Source: a virus
DNA: 10,964 nt
IMG/VR virus record: IMGVR_UViG_3300002461_000870
Coordinates: 1-10,964 of that record
Reading direction: 5' to 3' (one strand)
Shown here: positions 1-10,964 of the stretch, piece by piece
Position numbering within the stretch: position 1 is the first letter of the stretch
Layout of the letters: the number at the start of each line of letters is the position of its first letter
The notes under the pieces: model-generated
The model's database searches: none
What the model was told of the DNA's origin: nothing
Seen by the model: the letters and a program-made list of their open reading frames with translations, nothing else
Translations under genes and position numbers: made by a program

Positions 1-94
1 ATCTCAAAGACCAAGCGGTGCGCATCCAAGCCGAAACAGACCGCGCGCACGCGCGCATCGATCAATTCGTCATGAGGGAGTCGAGGCAATGAAG
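1..94. repeat. Terminal redundancy, copy 1 (identical to 10871-10964). It contains the 3' end of the 61-aa ORF (stop 90-92).
   Basis: Base-by-base comparison of 1-94 with 10871-10964 shows identity. This is typical of the end overlap of a circular contig. Confidence 0.95.
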
Positions 95-370
95 CAACAT
101 CACGCATTCACGTTTGACCGCAAGCCGGTCCCCGGGGCCGTGCCGATCATGGTGACGTCGACCTTCGAAGCGTCGGACGATGGCCAGCTGCGCCATTACA
201 CCGACGGGCGCCTTCGCGCCGAAGTGCCGCCCGAGGGCTGGGATGCCTACGCGGAGCAATGGCCCGATTCGCGCGCCATGGTGAACGAGCTCAAAGGCAA
301 GCCGGTCGTAGAGCAGACGATTTTCATCGGGGCGGACGCGCTCGCCAAGCAAGCCGAACTGGTGAAGTAA
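89..370 (+). CDS. Hypothetical soluble protein, 93 aa
   Basis: The ATG at 89 overlaps the TGA of the upstream 61-aa ORF (ATGA). GAGGGAG lies at 74-80. Third codon positions are strongly G/C. No TM segment or recognisable motif. Confidence 0.7.
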   Translation: MKQHHAFTFDRKPVPGAVPIMVTSTFEASDDGQLRHYTDGRLRAEVPPEGWDAYAEQWPDSRAMVNELKGKPVVEQTIFIGADALAKQAELVK

Positions 371-510
371 TGAGTCCGTACATCCCAAGCCTGCCGCAAG
401 TCTCTCGCGAGGTAATCGCGATACTGATCGCCACCGTTGCGGCGGCCTGGATCATCTCTCGCATCCCTGCCGTGCGCCAGCTGGTGCGCGAAAACTCCCT
501 GAACGGCTGA
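370..510 (+). CDS. Small single-pass membrane protein, 46 aa
   Basis: The ATG at 370 overlaps the upstream TAA (TAATG). The hydrophobic helix is VIAILIATVAAAWII. This is the C-terminal part of track ORF 259-510. Third positions are G/C-rich. Confidence 0.6.
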   Translation: MSPYIPSLPQVSREVIAILIATVAAAWIISRIPAVRQLVRENSLNG

Positions 511-513
511 TCC

Positions 514-687
514 ATGCTCGATCGTCTGAAAGCGCGCGCGCATGAGCCGTCGACGTGGGCGGGGCTCGCGGTGCTCGCGTCGATCCTAGGCGTGGACGGG
601 GCCGAACAATTCACGGCGCCAGACATTGCCGGGGCACTCGCGGCCGTGGCGGCCATCCTGATGAAAGAAGCAAACAATGCGCGATGA
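514..687 (+). CDS. Small membrane protein with two hydrophobic segments, 57 aa (hand-translated, below the ORF-track cutoff)
   Basis: The ATG at 514 lies 3 nt after the previous stop. Translation: MLDRLKARAHEPSTWAGLAVLASILGVDGAEQFTAPDIAGALAAVAAILMKEANNAR, with TGA at 685-687. Third positions are G/C-rich. It overlaps the next ORF by 11 nt. Confidence 0.55.
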   Translation: MLDRLKARAHEPSTWAGLAVLASILGVDGAEQFTAPDIAGALAAVAAILMKEANNAR

Positions 688-1144
688 TCTACTCGAAGAT
701 GGCGTTTCGTCGTTGTGTTTGGCGGTCGGTAGTTCGCCGGTTTTGCTGACAGGGACGCTAGTCGAGCAGGCGCTCGCTACCATTTCCGTTCCGCCGTCGG
801 CCGTTCGCCCAAATTCATTGTTTCGGATTTGGACGATGTGGTCGGTCACCAACAACGCCAACGTGAAAACCGTTCGCCTTCGTGCCAATGGTGTCGTCTG
901 GCATGTCTCCGCGCTGACCAGCGTCGCAACCGGATCGATCATGGGGCTGACTCCAATGCGAGGTCTGTCGGGTCAGGCGCACAATCCAGCGATGACTGCG
1001 CCGTTCATCACTGGCGTCGCGCCCGTCGCCTTGACGAGCGTCGATTGTTCGACCGGCTTCGAATTGACTGTGACCGCTCAGTTGACCAACATCGCCGACT
1101 CGATGACGCTAGAGGCTTACTGCGTCGAAGTGCTCGGGCGATGA
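677..1144 (+). CDS. Beta-rich soluble protein, 155 aa. Candidate minor capsid/vertex (single jelly-roll-like) protein.
   Basis: ATG at 677 with high GC3. The sequence has alternating hydrophobic and Thr/Ser/Val-rich stretches (VKTVRLRANGVVWHVSALTSV, FELTVTAQLTNIADSMTLEAYCVEVL) and no TM. The function is inference only. Confidence 0.7.
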   Translation: MRDDLLEDGVSSLCLAVGSSPVLLTGTLVEQALATISVPPSAVRPNSLFRIWTMWSVTNNANVKTVRLRANGVVWHVSALTSVATGSIMGLTPMRGLSGQAHNPAMTAPFITGVAPVALTSVDCSTGFELTVTAQLTNIADSMTLEAYCVEVLGR

Positions 1145-1236
1145 ACTCCAGCGATTGGGTGCTGCTCGGCGTGGGCCTGTGGCTGGTGTGGGAACTGCGC
1201 CGGCAGACTCAACCCGCGCGCGCCATCAGGGTATAA
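1141..1236 (+). CDS. Tiny membrane peptide, 31 aa; last gene of the late operon
   Basis: ATGA overlap with the previous stop. Translation: MNSSDWVLLGVGLWLVWELRRQTQPARAIRV, with TAA at 1234-1236. It has a Trp-flanked TM helix followed by a basic tail. Confidence 0.5.
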   Translation: MNSSDWVLLGVGLWLVWELRRQTQPARAIRV

Positions 1237-1544
1237 GCGTCGCCAGCTCGGGCGCCCGATGCCCGCAGCAGCATGTAGGCGCGCAGCTCGCGCGCGTCGA
1301 TCGCGTTGCGCATGTCGGGCGGGCGCAATAGCCCGTCCACGTCGAACCACCAACCCCGCCAGGCGTCACCCGCGCGCGGCCCCACGTGCCCCCCGTGATA
1401 CATCTCGAGCAGTCGATGCACCGACAGAGGTGCTGGCCGATCGCCACGGCGCCAGCGCATCGCGGTTGTGCGATCGACGCCGGCCAGGTCGGCCAGCTGG
1501 GGCGTCGTCACCCAATCGAGCAGGAGTAGCGTGCCAGTGCGCAT
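1209..1544 (-). CDS. Putative HTH DNA-binding regulator, 111 aa; second gene of the leftward operon
   Basis: An internal ATG at 1544 avoids overlap with the upstream gene (8-nt gap). The HTH-like segment is TTPQLADLAGVDRTTAMRWRRG. The Trp/Arg-rich C-terminal half (AWRGWWFDVDGLLRPPD) recalls small phage regulators. The family name is not asserted. Confidence 0.65.
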   Translation of the reverse strand: MRTGTLLLLDWVTTPQLADLAGVDRTTAMRWRRGDRPAPLSVHRLLEMYHGGHVGPRAGDAWRGWWFDVDGLLRPPDMRNAIDARELRAYMLLRASGARAGDAYTLMARAG

Positions 1545-1552
1545 AGCCGGCT

Positions 1553-1987
1553 TTACGGCCAGGCGCGGGCGATTTTGAGGGCGAAGTGAAGCGCGATCGC
1601 GATCGCCGGCCATTGCGCATAATGTGTAGCCTGTAGGTCAAAAAAACCCGCAACCGCGGGGCCGGGCAGCGTCCCGGCAAGGGCCACGATTCCCACGGCC
1701 AAACAAAGGCATGCGGCCTGCGCCATCCGGCGCGCAACGCGCTCCCAAACCCGTTTTTCATCTGTGCGTTTTGCACGCTCGGCGCTCATGCACGCCAGCA
1801 CATAGCCCGGATCGAGGCGCAATTCAGCGGCGACCCGCAGCGCGATTTCCGGGCTCATGGCCGTAGTGCCCGCTCGATAGTGGGATAGCGTCTGCTTCGT
1901 GATGCCGAGATGCTTTGCGATGCCGTAGTCCGACTCGATGCCGGTGCGATCTTTCAAAGCTCGTACGAGTGCCGCCGTGGTGTGCAT
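1553..1987 (-). CDS. XRE-family HTH transcriptional regulator with hydrophobic (membrane-anchoring) C-terminal region, 144 aa
   Basis: The ATG at 1987 is preceded by GGGAGA (plus-strand 1993-1998). The HTH is GIAKHLGITKQTLSHYRAGTTAMSPEIALRVAAEL. The C-terminus has two hydrophobic stretches (AACLCLAVGIVALAGTLPGPAVAGFF and WPAIAIALHFALKIA). The TTG at 2026 given in the ORF track lies upstream of the predicted -10 and is rejected. Confidence 0.8.
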   Translation of the reverse strand: MHTTAALVRALKDRTGIESDYGIAKHLGITKQTLSHYRAGTTAMSPEIALRVAAELRLDPGYVLACMSAERAKRTDEKRVWERVARRMAQAACLCLAVGIVALAGTLPGPAVAGFFDLQATHYAQWPAIAIALHFALKIARAWP

Positions 1988-2014
1988 GCCTGTCTCCCGC
2001 CAAGGATCGATCGA

Positions 2015-2043
2015 AAAATAGTCCAACGCCGTTCGACGTTCAA
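2015..2043 (-). promoter_or_regulatory. Leftward sigma70-like promoter for the regulator operon
   Basis: The minus strand reads TTGAAC-17 nt-TATTTT (-35 at 2038-2043, -10 at 2015-2020). The predicted transcription start near 2008, the SD at 1998-1993 and the ATG at 1987 fit together geometrically. Confidence 0.55.
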
Positions 2044-2055
2044 GGTCAGGGACAT

Positions 2056-2084
2056 TTGACCGTCTAAGGGGACTGGACTACTAT
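2056..2084 (+). promoter_or_regulatory. Rightward sigma70-like early promoter
   Basis: TTGACC (2056-2061), a 17-nt spacer, then TACTAT (2079-2084). It is a 21/29 mirror copy of the leftward promoter. Confidence 0.6.
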
Positions 2085-2113
2085 GCACGTGCCGCGCCCG
2101 GTGTCGGTCCTCC

Positions 2114-2152
2114 GCCAAGGGTCCGCGCCGGCCGGCACCCAACCCCCTTGGC
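2114..2152 (+). promoter_or_regulatory. Leader stem-loop in the early-right 5' UTR
   Basis: GCCAAGGG (2114-2121) pairs with CCCTTGGC (2145-2152). The loop contains the palindrome GCCGGCCGGC (2127-2136). The stem ends 1 nt before the SD AAGGAAA (2154-2160). Confidence 0.3.
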
Positions 2153-2165
2153 AAAGGAAACGACT

Positions 2166-2453
2166 ATGTACGGCACTCCCAAAGCGGCGCCCCCAGCGCC
2201 CGAAACGCTCGAAAACCCGATCGGCTGGAAATGTACCGGCTACACCCATGGCTGTTTTTGCCCGGCATGCGGTGCGCGAGACATCGCACGGGCGGAGCAT
2301 CTAAACCGGCTTCGCGCGGCGCCAGTCGATCAAGCGGCGCTCGAATACGCGCGTGAACTCAATCGGGAACTCGCCAAACAGCACGCGCTGGATATGGCCA
2401 ACGCGCTGAGTGAATTGTTCTCGGCTCCGACGAGGGGGGGGCGCCATGGCTGA
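2166..2453 (+). CDS. Small Cys/His-cluster (putative zinc-binding) protein, 95 aa; first gene of the early-right operon
   Basis: The ATG at 2166 follows AAGGAAA by 5 nt (7 nt after its GGA core). The motif is WKCTGYTHGCFCPAC (C-x4-H-x-C-x-C-x2-C), followed by a helical tail. The TTG at 2148 in the ORF track has no SD. Confidence 0.7.
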   Translation: MYGTPKAAPPAPETLENPIGWKCTGYTHGCFCPACGARDIARAEHLNRLRAAPVDQAALEYARELNRELAKQHALDMANALSELFSAPTRGGRHG

Positions 2454-2649
2454 CCCGTTCATTGTGTCGGTCGATCCGGCGAATACGGGCCTGATCGAGC
2501 AAGCGGTGCACGCGGCCAAGGCGGCCGGCTCACTTCAGACGAATGACGCGATCCTGGGCGAACTGCTGGCGCTCGGAGCGTTCGAGGTCGTGCTACGGGC
2601 CAAGGCGGCCGGCTCAGTGCTCAACGCGGTCCGGGGGGCGCTCAATTGA
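2446..2649 (+). CDS. Hypothetical protein, 67 aa, with internal AKAAGS repeat
   Basis: The ATG at 2446 is preceded by GAGGGGGG. There is an 8-nt overlap with the upstream gene. GC3 is high. It contains an exact 19-bp in-frame direct repeat (2514-2532 and 2598-2616). Confidence 0.65.
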   Translation: MADPFIVSVDPANTGLIEQAVHAAKAAGSLQTNDAILGELLALGAFEVVLRAKAAGSVLNAVRGALN

Positions 2650-2903
2650 TCGACGAACGCGCCCGCGCGCTCGCGGAAATCCTCCCCGCGTTGCAGCAGT
2701 ACATAGAGCTAGGGGAAGCGATCAACTCGGCTCTCAAATCCAACCAGCTGCCCGCATCCCTGCCGCAAGTCGCCGCCCGCAGCGTCCACACGGCGCTCGT
2801 GGCGCTCGCGGCGCAGGAAATCCTAGCCCGTGCCCCACAAACGGCCGACGGCGTCGCCAAGCGGCTTGCAGGGCTCACGGCGCCGGCCAGGGCGGCGGCA
2901 TGA
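2646..2903 (+). CDS. Hypothetical helical protein, 85 aa
   Basis: The TTG start overlaps the upstream TGA (TTGA). GC3 is high. It fills the operon without gaps. The non-ATG start lowers confidence. Confidence 0.55.
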   Translation: MIDERARALAEILPALQQYIELGEAINSALKSNQLPASLPQVAARSVHTALVALAAQEILARAPQTADGVAKRLAGLTAPARAAA

Positions 2904-3103
2904 TCGAGCGAGGCTACATTTTCCGTATTGACGGCCTTGAACTCGAGGGCTTCGAACGTCTGCTCGGAGTCGGGCTCAGTGAAACCTGCGGCGTTTGGCC
3001 AGCTGATGAGACGAGAGCGGCCGAAGAACTGCAAATTGCGATCGACGGGGCGGTGCGGATCGAGGTGCGTGTTTACCGTATCACGGGGCGGCCTCTCGAA
3101 TGA
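2900..3103 (+). CDS. Hypothetical protein, 67 aa
   Basis: There are ATGA overlaps at both ends (2900 and 3100). GC3 is high. This is the only part of track ORF 2543-3103 that looks coding. Confidence 0.65.
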   Translation: MIERGYIFRIDGLELEGFERLLGVGLSETCGVWPADETRAAEELQIAIDGAVRIEVRVYRITGRPLE

Positions 3104-4410
3104 TCGCCGCCCCCCGTTCGATCGAGGGGGCTGGACCCCTTCTAGGTATAATTGCGAAATCCATACACGCGGCCCGGCCGAAGCGGTCGAATTCTCAGCC
3201 GAAAGCGGCGGCCGGGGCGCAGCGTATGCGATTCGAACTCCAGCGCGCGGCGCAATCCCTGCTCTACGTTCGAGACGCGCCGCACGCGAACCAGCATCGG
3301 ACGTGCTGGTGCCACCGTCGGATCAAGGACCGCGACGAAACATTGACGGTTTACAGGTCGGTTGACGGCGGCCGATCGCGCATCCAGGGCATCGGGACAT
3401 GCGGCAACGTCTGGACGTGCCCGGTGTGCTCGTCGAAGGTGTGCGAGGTTCGCCGCGATGAACTGGCGACGGCCATGATCGTGGCGCAGTCGCTCGGGCA
3501 CCATGCGTACCTGCTCACGCTCACGTCGCCGCATCGAGCCGAAGATGCGCTCGATCCGCTGCTCGATCGCCAGAAAAAGGCGCTTCAATCGTTCCGCAAC
3601 TCTCGCGGCTTCAAGGCGATCGCCGCGCGCTATTCCCGGCTCGGCGCGATTCACGCCAGTGAATGCACATGGGGCATCAACGGATGGCATCCGCACGCGC
3701 ACGATCTTTGGCTAGCCGCGCCCGGCCTGGAAGGGGATTTTTCGACGCTGCGCCGGTTGAAAGGTTTATGGCTACGCGCGCAGCTGAAAGCGGGCCTATT
3801 GCGTTTGGATGGAACCCTCAAGCCGCTGCGCGATGCTTGGCGGCATGGGCTCGATCTGCGCGGCGGTCAATACGCGGCCGAGTACATCGCCAAATTCGGC
3901 CACGATTCCGCCTGGGGGCTCTCGTCAGAGGTCACACGACCGCACGCGAAGGTGGGGCTTAGGAGAGAGGCGGGCGATGGCCAGCATTTCACGCCGTTCG
4001 CTCTGCTCGAATGGGCGATGGGCGGCGACTCGACCGCGCGCGCCGCGTTCCAGGAATACGCGCGCGCCTACTCGGGGCGAAGGATGCTCGTCTGGTCGCG
4101 GGGCTTGAAAGCGGCGCTCGGGATCGCAGAAATCAACGATGAACTCGCGGCTGAACGCGAAATGGGCGAGGAAGTGAAAGTTGGGATCCTGCACGCGGAC
4201 GCATACGCGGTCGTGATGAAGGCGCGCGCGCTGGGCGAGTTCATGGAGTACGCATCGCAGTCTTGCATCGACCCGGATACCTCGCAGCGCGATCTGGACG
4301 ACTTTATCGATTACCTGCGCGCACGGCTGCGCGATCGGGCGCCCCCCGGTCGGCCGGATCTGGTTTCACCGAGGGGCGCTCTGTGGTCTTACCCGGGGAG
4401 CGTGCAGTGA
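3100..4410 (+). CDS. rep: Rolling-circle replication initiator, HUH endonuclease superfamily I (two-tyrosine, phiX174 A / P2 A / PM2 P12-like class), 436 aa
   Basis: Motif 1 is YLLTLT (LLTLT at 3511-3525). Motif 2 is WHPHAHDLWL, with HPHAH at 3688-3702. Motif 3 is YAAEYIAKF, with Tyr codons at 3871 and 3883. There is an N-terminal Cys cluster, TCGNVWTCPVC (3400-3429). The start is uncertain: the ATGA-coupled ATG at 3100 or the ATG at 3226. Confidence 0.9.
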   Translation: MIAAPRSIEGAGPLLGIIAKSIHAARPKRSNSQPKAAAGAQRMRFELQRAAQSLLYVRDAPHANQHRTCWCHRRIKDRDETLTVYRSVDGGRSRIQGIGTCGNVWTCPVCSSKVCEVRRDELATAMIVAQSLGHHAYLLTLTSPHRAEDALDPLLDRQKKALQSFRNSRGFKAIAARYSRLGAIHASECTWGINGWHPHAHDLWLAAPGLEGDFSTLRRLKGLWLRAQLKAGLLRLDGTLKPLRDAWRHGLDLRGGQYAAEYIAKFGHDSAWGLSSEVTRPHAKVGLRREAGDGQHFTPFALLEWAMGGDSTARAAFQEYARAYSGRRMLVWSRGLKAALGIAEINDELAAEREMGEEVKVGILHADAYAVVMKARALGEFMEYASQSCIDPDTSQRDLDDFIDYLRARLRDRAPPGRPDLVSPRGALWSYPGSVQ

Positions 4411-4564
4411 CAACGTTTCAACGCATCAATGCCTTAACTCCAAAAGCATCTCGACTGCTCGATAGCCCGTTCGTTACTGCTGAAATGCGCTCGACGGTGC
4501 ATGAGATAATTCTGATCTTGGCGGATCTGGACCAGCGAATCACCCAACTGGAAAGGGAACGCCA
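4411..4564 (+). promoter_or_regulatory. Low-GC intergenic control region; candidate late promoter with extended -10
   Basis: About 47 percent GC over 4411-4520 by hand count, against the mid-60s elsewhere. TGAGATAAT at 4502-4510 fits the extended -10 pattern TGnTATAAT, and no good -35 is present. The SD GGAAAGGGAA lies at 4550-4559. Confidence 0.45.
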
Positions 4565-4849
4565 ATGGCCACAGGTGACAAACTCGGGCGGCTAGTGTGC
4601 CCGTGCTGCTCGGGCGCGTGGGAAGCGACCGAGATGAAAGGCGGCGGCACGTCGTTCAAGTGCCCGAATGGGTTTGTCGGCTGGGCCAAGGGACCGCGCG
4701 CCAATGCCGGCATACTCGCCAAGCTCAAGCCGGCAGCGCCGGCCGCAAAGGTACCCGCTGCGCCAGCTGCTGCACCAGCTGCGAAACCCGCACCGACACC
4801 CGCCAAGCGCGGCGGCTTCATGGCCTTTCTCGCGGGGGATGACGAATGA
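4565..4849 (+). CDS. Cys-cluster protein with Lys/Ala/Pro-rich low-complexity tail, 94 aa
   Basis: ATG at 4565 with a strong SD. The Cys cluster is CPCC-x17-C. The tail is AKLKPAAPAAKVPAAPAAAPAAKPAPTPAKR (about 4718-4810). The C-terminus is GGFMAFLAGDDE. Confidence 0.75.
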   Translation: MATGDKLGRLVCPCCSGAWEATEMKGGGTSFKCPNGFVGWAKGPRANAGILAKLKPAAPAAKVPAAPAAAPAAKPAPTPAKRGGFMAFLAGDDE

Positions 4850-10962: not shown

Positions 10963-10964
10963 AG
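10871..10964. repeat. Terminal redundancy, copy 2 (identical to 1-94)
   Basis: Same comparison as copy 1. The window ends at the ATG/AAG of the next gene, exactly as at 89-94. Confidence 0.95.

Follow-up and report, generated by a model that had tools for sequence, protein, structure and literature searches.

The IMG/VR virus record IMGVR_UViG_3300002461_000870 (positions 1 to 10,964; this whole stretch of 10,964 nucleotides is called the window below) carries, at positions 2015-2084, two divergent promoters of the -35/17-nt/-10 type that together form an imperfect palindrome of 70 bp. Judged from its sequence, this feature is an early control region of the PM2/pAS28 type, which has a lambda-like geometry and is served by neither CI-type nor Cro-type proteins. 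The best explanation of it is probably that two sigma-70-type promoters stand back to back and that a dyad in the spacer of each serves as an operator. In brief, a leftward promoter P_L (-35 at 2043-2038, -10 at 2020-2015, predicted start at about 2008) would drive a leftward operon encoding proteins of 144 and 111 amino acids (aa), and a rightward promoter P_R (-35 at 2056-2061, -10 at 2079-2084, predicted start at about 2091) would drive the rightward early operon. Dimers of the Xre-type helix-turn-helix (HTH) protein would bind both spacers and block RNA polymerase; this would switch off the early-right operon and hold down production of the regulator itself, as the early-left regulators of PM2 do. 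In this scheme the transcription starts, the operators, the protein that binds them and the sign of regulation are predicted. Since the ends of the window are identical over 94 bp (bases 1-94 = 10871-10964, an exact terminal overlap), it represents a complete genome in the form of a 10,870-bp circle.

The leftward arm of the pair (2015-2043, minus strand) reads TTGAACGTCGAACGGCGTTGGACTATTTT, and the rightward arm (2056-2084, plus strand) reads TTGACCGTCTAAGGGGACTGGACTACTAT; the two match at 21 of 29 positions, and the sequences and coordinates quoted for them in an initial annotation of the window are correct. The pair comprises a leftward -35 TTGAAC (2038-2043, minus strand), a leftward -10 TATTTT (2015-2020, minus strand), a rightward -35 TTGACC (2056-2061, plus strand) and a rightward -10 TACTAT (2079-2084, plus strand), and 12 bp (2044-2055) separate the two -35 hexamers, as had been described. 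A repeat finder delimited the arms as 2019-2043 and 2056-2080 (25 nt, 76% complementary, gap of 12), which is the sole inverted repeat of at least 19/25 with a gap of at most 30 in the 10,870-bp genome and falls precisely within the 178 bp that separate the two divergent genes. Dinucleotide shuffling of the complete genome yielded 0.16 such repeats on average, and at least one was present in 15% of the shuffles. The similarity extends beyond the hexamers, the spacers alone agreeing at 12 of 17 positions (binomial p = 2e-4). The motif TGGACTA occurs twice in the genome, both times in the promoter pair, and the GC content of the core drops to 48.6%, making it an AT-rich island in a genome of 64% GC. 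The palindrome TCGATCGA is found at 2007-2014, at the predicted leftward transcription start, where it had been placed by the initial annotation; it is kept in the relatives L013, L003, L006 (two copies) and L011, and is degenerate in L004 and L007. It is present three times in the window (0.56 expected; 3 of 200 shuffles reach three), the other copies lying at 3118-3125, 18 nt into the rep gene, and at 5951-5958, just past the ATPase stop codon and beside a TTGACA (5942-5947), in an intergenic region that corresponds to the position of the PM2 late promoter. A further pair of motifs noted earlier, GGTCA at 2044-2048 and TGACC at 2057-2061, does occur at these positions, but it is a chance mini-repeat rather than a meaningful pair: each 5-mer is present 27 times in the genome and the pair is lost in L013 and L003.

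Relatives were collected by a protein search with the 144-aa regulator (12 clusters) and by a metagenome scan (21 additional loci), and the removal of near-duplicates left 22 lineages, which are not phylogenetically independent; they are cited here by L numbers. Their regulators are 36-96% identical to that of the window, and several of the contigs are about 11 kb long with the same gene order. In almost every one of the 22 lineages, each strand has its top-scoring promoter candidate at the homologous position, in agreement with the proposal of two divergent -35/17/-10 promoters. Indeed, the rightward -35 reads TTGAC in 21/22 lineages and the rightward -10 reads TAnnnT in 21/22 (first T in 21, A2 and T6 in 22), while the leftward -35 starts with TTG in 21/22 and the leftward -10 with TA in 20/22 (first T in 20, A2 in 22), counts that are biased upward because the best candidate was picked in each relative. 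In most lineages, 72-83 nt separate the regulator start codon from the beginning of the rightward -35, with the leftward -35 lying just before that box, and the two -35 boxes are 12-17 bp apart (more in L006, L018 and L032). An alignment of the eight closest sequences made with MAFFT is free of this bias: the rightward TTG columns (T72, T73, G74) and the leftward CAA columns (A58 and A59 among them) are invariant, and the spacers vary. The left half of the region is identical in the window and in L013, its closest relative, and the rightward -10 is TAGCAT in L013, as in most close relatives, versus TACTAT in the window. The divergent promoter pair is well supported by this conservation and is very likely to be genuine, its starts being predicted.

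Both 17-nt spacers of the pair contain the pattern GTCNA-N7-TNGAC, which occurs nowhere else in the genome (0.09 copies expected; 0 of 200 shuffles reach two). The leftward spacer is filled by O_L, GTCCAACGCCGTTCGAC (2021-2037), a 17-bp dyad that is self-complementary at 14/17 positions, is identical in L013 and is a candidate autoregulatory operator. The rightward spacer is filled by O_R, GTCTAAGGGGACTGGAC (2062-2078), a 17-bp element that is a candidate operator for early-right repression. In L003, the rightward spacer is GTCCAGAAAACCTGGAC, a palindrome with perfect 5-bp inverted ends, and GTC-N11-GAC also fills spacers in L004, L012, L001, L029/L031 and L024/L025. A possible middle site, GTCAGGGACATTTGAC (2045-2060), is 16 bp long and ends in the rightward -35; its counterpart is a 17-bp GTC-N11-GAC in L013, L012, L006, L031, L024 and L025, and its shorter length in the window stems from a 1-bp deletion relative to L013. 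The middle site carries little weight as evidence, since the -35 hexamer makes up its right half. The window, L013 and L003 keep TAGTCCA, CGACGTTCAA, TTGACCGTC and CTGGA(C/A)TA and differ in the inner bases of the spacers; the HTH helices of their regulators are nearly identical. Searches of the rest of the genome for the O_L palindrome and for GTCCA-N7-TGGAC gave nothing above chance. The two GTCNA-N7-TNGAC copies are the likeliest operators for the Xre-type HTH protein, as candidate sites, and the simplest reading is that a dimeric Xre-type HTH protein would occupy one 17-bp dyad per spacer. The dyad centres are 41 bp apart in the window and 41-45 bp apart among the relatives, and their helical phasing is not conserved. 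The idea that one dimer could control both operons does not hold, since a dimer cannot span two 17-bp sites with centres 41 bp apart.

Control could also be exerted at the level of RNA. The predicted leader of the rightward transcript is 75 nt long, and three elements were recognized in the two transcripts. Element A (1987-2008, minus strand) makes up the whole predicted 5' leader and the ribosome-binding site (RBS) of the leftward mRNA, with a Shine-Dalgarno sequence (SD) GGGAGA and a start codon at 1987-1985; this leader and RBS of the regulator mRNA, as RNA, is called A' below. Element B (2103-2121, plus strand) is the anti-SD arm of the rightward leader and comprises GUCG, UCCU and GCCAAGGG. 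Element C (2145-2164, plus strand) is the SD arm, CCCUUGGC..AGGA..CGAC, with the SD AAGGA at 2154-2158, just ahead of the ATG at 2166. The minimum free energy (MFE) fold pairs B with C (inverted repeat I2), so that the SD near the ATG at 2166 would be buried, and the duplex between C and the leader has a predicted energy of -27.5 kcal/mol in the window (z = -5.2). On the plus strand, A and B form a direct repeat, D1 (1987-2008 versus 2102-2123), with 17 of 22 positions identical (77%). The duplex between the regulator RBS and the rightward leader is predicted at -31.5 kcal/mol (z = -4.3), a value that 0 of 1000 shuffles equalled, and the leader is the best partner of this RBS genome-wide, its own antisense strand excepted.

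These relationships recur from lineage to lineage with changing sequences. An exact block of 8-15 nt is shared by A and B in 20/20 lineages and differs in sequence between them. Over the same 20 lineages, the duplex of the regulator RBS with the leader averages -27.3 kcal/mol within genomes versus -20.5 across genomes, that of the rightward RBS (C) with the leader -24.3 versus -17.8 kcal/mol, and the longest exact run common to A' and C 7.65 versus 4.76 nt (permutation p < 5e-5 for each of the two duplexes; p < 5e-5 for the run). In the B-C helix, 88.6% of the cells are paired and 8/10 core pairs show compensatory changes among the eight close relatives; in the A'-B helix, 8/10 pairs are changed on both sides, 0 of 500 shuffles reaching the observed value in either case; the alignments of both helices were registered by hand with the use of complementarity. 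The B/C arms read, for example, GCCAAGG/CCUUGGC in the window, GCCGAGG/CCUCGGC in L006, GCCAGAG/CUCUGGC in L007 and UCCGAAGG/CCUUCGGA in L012. At the sequence level, then, A, B and C co-vary in a three-way, lineage-specific manner in 20 lineages. A and B are separated by 110 to 159 bp, depending on the lineage, and show no helical phasing; this speaks against a looping protein with fixed sites on the DNA, and DNA looping between A and B was rejected on this ground.

A layer of RNA control that adds to the switch or dominates it, in which B would pair with C in cis and with A' (2008-1987) in trans, is a tentative possibility that we rate as rather less probable than not. Early-right transcription would then lower the translation of the regulator, as an RNA counterpart of Cro, and such a layer is compatible with spacer operators bound by the HTH protein. 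Besides the genome-specific duplexes and shared runs, the double-sided changes and the position of the leader as best partner of the left RBS, it is favoured by the A'-B duplex, predicted to be stronger than C-B in 15/20 lineages, and by the variable A-B distance, which speaks against fixed protein-binding DNA repeats. The evidence on the other side is of several kinds. The helices owe their alignment to hand registration through complementarity, the asymmetry between G-U and A-C (wobble) changes amounts to only 5 versus 2 transitions with a mixed MFE strand preference, and the lineages share ancestry. In PM2, as in the window, the SD region of the rightward leader pairs with an upstream leader segment, but unlike the window PM2 has no complementarity between the leader and the regulator RBS. 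The same covariation could also be produced by a shared translational regulator, or by an RNA- or DNA-binding protein recognizing all three copies. A stricter version, according to which there is no protein Cro and the anti-RBS of the 75-nt leader toggles between its own SD (in cis) and the regulator RBS (in trans), silencing translation of the repressor, is more doubtful still; if it were true, immunity specificity would be set in part by a short RNA-RNA match that co-evolved in three places per lineage.

Searches for known RNA elements in this region gave little. No Rfam 15 family matched at the gathering score (only chance-level hits with E > 1 within 1950-2250), and no terminator-like site was found on the plus strand between 2085 and 2165. 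When IMG/VR was scanned for exact matches to a pattern taken from the conserved leader, 35 loci were returned, which were set aside as chance matches because none encodes a homologue. RNAalifold, run on a MAFFT alignment in which the B segment is misaligned, proposed an alternative 5' hairpin at 2089-2138 (GUGCCG...CGGCAC and CCGGUG.CGG/UCCGCGCCGG, with U-G pairs on the plus strand), which would carry the anti-SD arm in its tip, leaving the SD free. The rightward leader may, on this folding model, adopt two states.

Several observations weigh against spacer operators, or against parts of the promoter case, in addition to the counting bias mentioned above. In a generic promoter scan the rightward promoter passes (9/12) and the leftward one fails (8/12), and 2 sites were found in the window versus 2.1 in shuffles; the promoter case consequently rests on conservation and not on consensus score. 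O_R is only weakly symmetric (self-complementary at 8/17 positions). Genome-specific similarity between left and right spacers, sought as a sign of shared operators, gave a negative result family-wide: 6.0 of 16 positions match within genomes versus 5.6 across genomes (p = 0.11), and the similarity is high only in the small clade of the window and three others. The GTC after the leftward -35 and the GAC before the -10 recur despite different recognition helices. In distant relatives (the L014-L023 group and L034), an inverted repeat of 9-12 bp brackets the rightward -35; because of these bracket repeats, operator geometry is not uniform across the family. The proposal that the shared blocks TTGAnCGTC and TGGACTA are operator half-sites is accordingly kept in part: the blocks do consist of the hexamers plus the ends of the 17-bp spacer dyad, but the GAC and TA of TGGACTA and the GTC after the leftward -35 may be promoter-proximal constants and not determinants of specificity.

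Carried further, this leads to a different explanation, which we consider unlikely: the promoters would be real, the similarity between left and right would reflect promoter architecture for the host polymerase, and the true operators would lie elsewhere, for example between the -35 boxes and in the rightward spacer (compare the bracket repeats of the distant relatives and the direct repeats TAGTGCGGAG of PM2) or in the TCGATCGA palindrome at the leftward start. It is consistent with the negative spacer comparison, with the bracket repeats around the rightward -35, with the GTC found after the leftward -35 in most lineages irrespective of their recognition helices, and with the GAC|TA that precedes the -10 in many relatives and in the rightward promoter of PM2. 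It would also suit the 19-nt direct repeat of PM2 (1186-1204 and 1205-1223) and the conservation of TCGATCGA at the leftward start. Against it stand the 12/17 match between the spacers of the window, the 14/17 palindrome of O_L, which polymerase contacts do not explain, the palindromic rightward spacer of L003 with its perfect 5-bp ends, and the lack of the full GTCNA-N7-TNGAC pattern anywhere else in the genome. That the 70-bp palindrome functions as a whole, whether as a cruciform, as a replication origin for the rolling-circle Rep or as one long operator bound by a single complex or loop, is highly improbable: the palindrome is the sole inverted repeat of its strength in the genome and lies about 1 kb upstream of rep, but its arms diverge independently in relatives without the similarity being maintained, 6/25 positions are mismatched, the distance between the -35 boxes and that between the dyads (41-45 bp) both vary, the nick site of PM2 is annotated inside gene XII and not in an intergenic region, and it is the hexamers, not the palindrome, that are conserved. 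The 70-bp palindrome stressed in the initial annotation is a by-product of two like promoter-plus-operator units placed head to head.

Both leftward HTH proteins that had been predicted are present, although the HTH match of the second is weak, and they are the only two leftward genes in the genome. The first gene of the operon (1553-1987, minus strand) encodes the 144-aa Xre/cI-type HTH regulator, which matches Pfam HTH_3/DUF3693 and phrog_638 and has HigA and lambda-repressor-like proteins as closest solved relatives. It shares 31% identity over 86 aa with PM2 Orf c (BLASTP E 7e-10; hhalign 97%, E 1e-10). A hydrophobic C-terminal segment is present at residues ~88-107 (Kyte-Doolittle 19-residue maximum of 2.05 at residue 89); this stretch, which follows the DNA-binding/DUF3693 part, is conserved in relatives of the regulator, has no counterpart in PM2 Orf c (92 aa) and may be a membrane anchor. 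The second gene (1209-1544, minus strand) encodes a 111-aa protein conserved in 6 relatives, with a weak Pfam HTH_17 match below the family cut-off (E 0.0012) and a weak similarity to PM2 Orf a (hhalign 64.6%, E 6e-5, 52 columns; BLASTP E 0.005). Pfam DUF3653 was not found in the 111-aa protein and matches PM2 Orf a just under the cut-off (E 2.5e-4).

The first rightward gene (2166-2453, plus strand) encodes a 95-aa Cys/His-rich protein with the motif GWKCTGYTHGCFCPAC, for which no match was found in Pfam or PHROG. The motif is conserved in L013, L003, L004, L006 and L011, where it takes the general form GW(K/Q)CTGY(T/M)HGCFCPxC..RDI(A/S)RA with variable ends; the homologous first rightward genes lie at 7891-8091 in L003, 499-717 in L004, 5938-6120 in L006, 2401-2583 in L011 and 24-302 in L013. 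This protein may be a zinc-binding regulator in Cro's position. The designation of the region as a genetic switch in the lysis-lysogeny sense is not sustained: no integrase was found in the genome, and no S24-type cleavage domain was found in the regulator, whose Pfam matches are limited to HTH_3, DUF3693 and related families.

The resemblance to the Pseudoalteromonas phage PM2 (Corticoviridae) suggested by the initial annotation is one of homology and not a mere likeness, since the leftward proteins are homologous in the order of PM2 (Orf c, and weakly Orf a); the P9-type ATPase also matches and the layout is equally back to back. In PM2, the leftward operon encodes the repressors P15 and P16 (PMC1950889, a secondary source) and is thought, with its promoter region, to derive from plasmid pAS28 (PMC1950889); P15 affects both oppositely facing promoters (PMC10589892, a secondary source), and the rightward operon carries the replication initiator (PMC1950889). 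PM2 is a virulent phage (PMC1950889) and carries the homologous regulator module. We infer the assignment of P15 and P16 to PM2 open reading frames (secondary sources PMC1950889 and PMC9502842; P15 is cI-like according to PMC10589892). The divergent early promoters of PM2, P1193 and P1207, have published names about 13 bp apart, and the leftward genes follow in the order Orf c - Orf b - Orf a (genes XVI/XV). By sequence prediction, the rightward promoter is TTGACC-18-TATCAT at 1206-1235, and the leftward one reads as TGCAAT-16-TATAAT.

Both genomes are circular, of about 10-11 kb, with a P9-type ATPase, a leftward regulator operon in which the proximal protein is homologous and the distal one weakly so, and promoters that stand back to back, with about 12-13 bp between the -35 boxes and TTGACC as the rightward -35. 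The outer inverted repeat of PM2, TAGTCAAC.../...GACTA, resembles TAGTCCAAC.../...GGACTA of the window. The window differs from PM2 by its 64% GC, by a regulator that extends beyond Orf c with a hydrophobic C-terminal part some 55 residues long, by the lack of an Orf b between the leftward genes, by a Rep of another type than P12 and by a capsid protein without BLASTP-detectable similarity. In addition, the repeats in the PM2 promoter region are direct (TAGTGCGGAG) and are not GTC-N11-GAC dyads. In the rightward leader of PM2 (L035), positions 1275-1313 contain a perfect 10-bp hairpin (GCGGTTACTG...CAGTAACCGC) followed by TTTTTT, which, read from its sequence, looks like an attenuator within the long-range SD pairing.

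In phage lambda, the starts of PRM and PR are 82 bp apart, and control involves the sites OR1-OR3 and the proteins CI and Cro. The window is similar in having back-to-back promoters with predicted starts about 83 bp apart, 17-bp dyads overlapping each promoter, between which a third site may lie, and a cI/Xre-type HTH regulator transcribed leftward. A test for three operators of the lambda type found two full 17-bp dyads and a middle one of 16 bp in the window and of 17 bp in L013, L012 and L031. Unlike in lambda, the regulator has no S24 autocleavage or CI-type C-terminal domain and bears a hydrophobic segment instead, the first rightward gene is Cys/His-rich and not of the Cro-type HTH kind, the dyads fill the spacers exactly whereas the lambda sites overlap the hexamers in a staggered manner, the middle site is degenerate (16 bp), and no integrase was found.

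The c4 RNA of phages P1 and P7 is an example of RNA-based phage immunity. In phage P4, the CI RNA has two complementary targets, seqA and seqC (PMC4825925). As with the P4 CI RNA, one segment of the window (B) is complementary to two others (A' and C), and the segments co-vary between relatives. In contrast to P4, the A' target lies on the divergent transcript and the targets are RBSs, not termination-control sites; compared with the RNAs of P4, P1 and P7, no processed small RNA or terminator is evident and no Rfam match was obtained, and the likeness is one of logic only.

Another comparison is offered by the Rhodobacter phage Jorvik (Vinavirales), in which two oppositely facing promoters lie upstream of the P15-like repressor Gp7 and whose authors propose the Gp7 intergenic region as the main regulatory hub (PMC10589892). 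Compared by its published description, Jorvik resembles the window in having a small, circular, high-GC genome of the membrane-phage type and a repressor-like HTH protein beside divergent promoters, and differs from it in that the repressor is in the packaging operon and a CtrA site is proposed. In the phage collection, neither the ATPase search nor the DNA search brought up Jorvik.

The gene content indicates that the window is the complete circular genome of a corticovirus-like (PM2-like, Vinavirales-type) phage that bears this early control region. The rightward early operon encodes small proteins, a rolling-circle Rep and the packaging ATPase. The ATPase shares 31.6% identity with PM2 P9 (tblastn, 94% coverage, E 5e-18), also matches phrog_2666 and is of the P9 type (FtsK/HerA-like); an SLT lytic transglycosylase is encoded as well. 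Rep (3100-4410, plus strand) has a weak Rep_1/HUH rolling-circle match and an HUH-like motif, HPHAHD, and no similarity to PM2 P12 was found. Such a non-P12 Rep fits the frequent replacement of replication genes reported for Vinavirales (PMC9502842), and the replication module has been exchanged relative to PM2, the regulator module being common to both. Upstream of an Orf h-like gene and the ATPase, the position of P14 in PM2, a 94-aa protein is encoded (4565-4849, plus strand) with an N-terminal zinc-ribbon-like motif CPCC...CP and a C-terminal tail F..FL..DDE; it weakly resembles the PM2 late activator P14 at its two ends (E 0.006 and 0.05). On the 3' side of the ATPase, the segment 5946-6147 holds a terminator-like hairpin (5971-5985) with a T run, then an open reading frame for a 28-aa hydrophobic/membrane protein (6021-6107), P7-like by position, and then the capsid gene, an order that matches PM2 genes IX, VII and II. 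The gene after the 28-aa open reading frame is probably the capsid gene, whose product gives E 0.46 with the double-jelly-roll capsid protein P2 of PM2 in BLASTP and whose position after the ATPase and the P7-like open reading frame fits. The hairpins at 42-57 and 10912-10927 are one and the same, as they lie in the terminal overlap.

Close relatives have capsid proteins that are about 80% identical and regulators that are about 55% identical, as is commonly seen where structural genes are conserved and control genes evolve fast. Among deposited phages, megablast of the whole genome gave no DNA match. A scan of IMG/VR with Rep returned no relatives and one with the repressor two distant loci only, and a scan of GTDB genomes with the repressor pattern returned nothing. 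With the capsid protein, a scan found one 10.5-kb contig binned with a Thiobacillus metagenome-assembled genome; this contig has 52% GC and lacks homologues of the regulators, Rep and ATPase, and no host was assigned from it.

In summary, the analysis places a previously undescribed, high-GC clade of PM2-like phages (about 11 kb, seen only in metagenomes) in the PM2/pAS28 regulatory scheme, which has so far been studied in a single virus. The GTCNA-N7-TNGAC elements in both spacers provide testable operator candidates for HTH regulators of the P16 family, whose genes belong to the conserved set of Vinavirales. The lock-step change of two RBSs and an anti-SD segment in 20 lineages is a side observation that could matter more; if the RNA-RNA cross-talk between divergent transcripts to which it points were true, it would represent an uncommon design for a bistable circuit.

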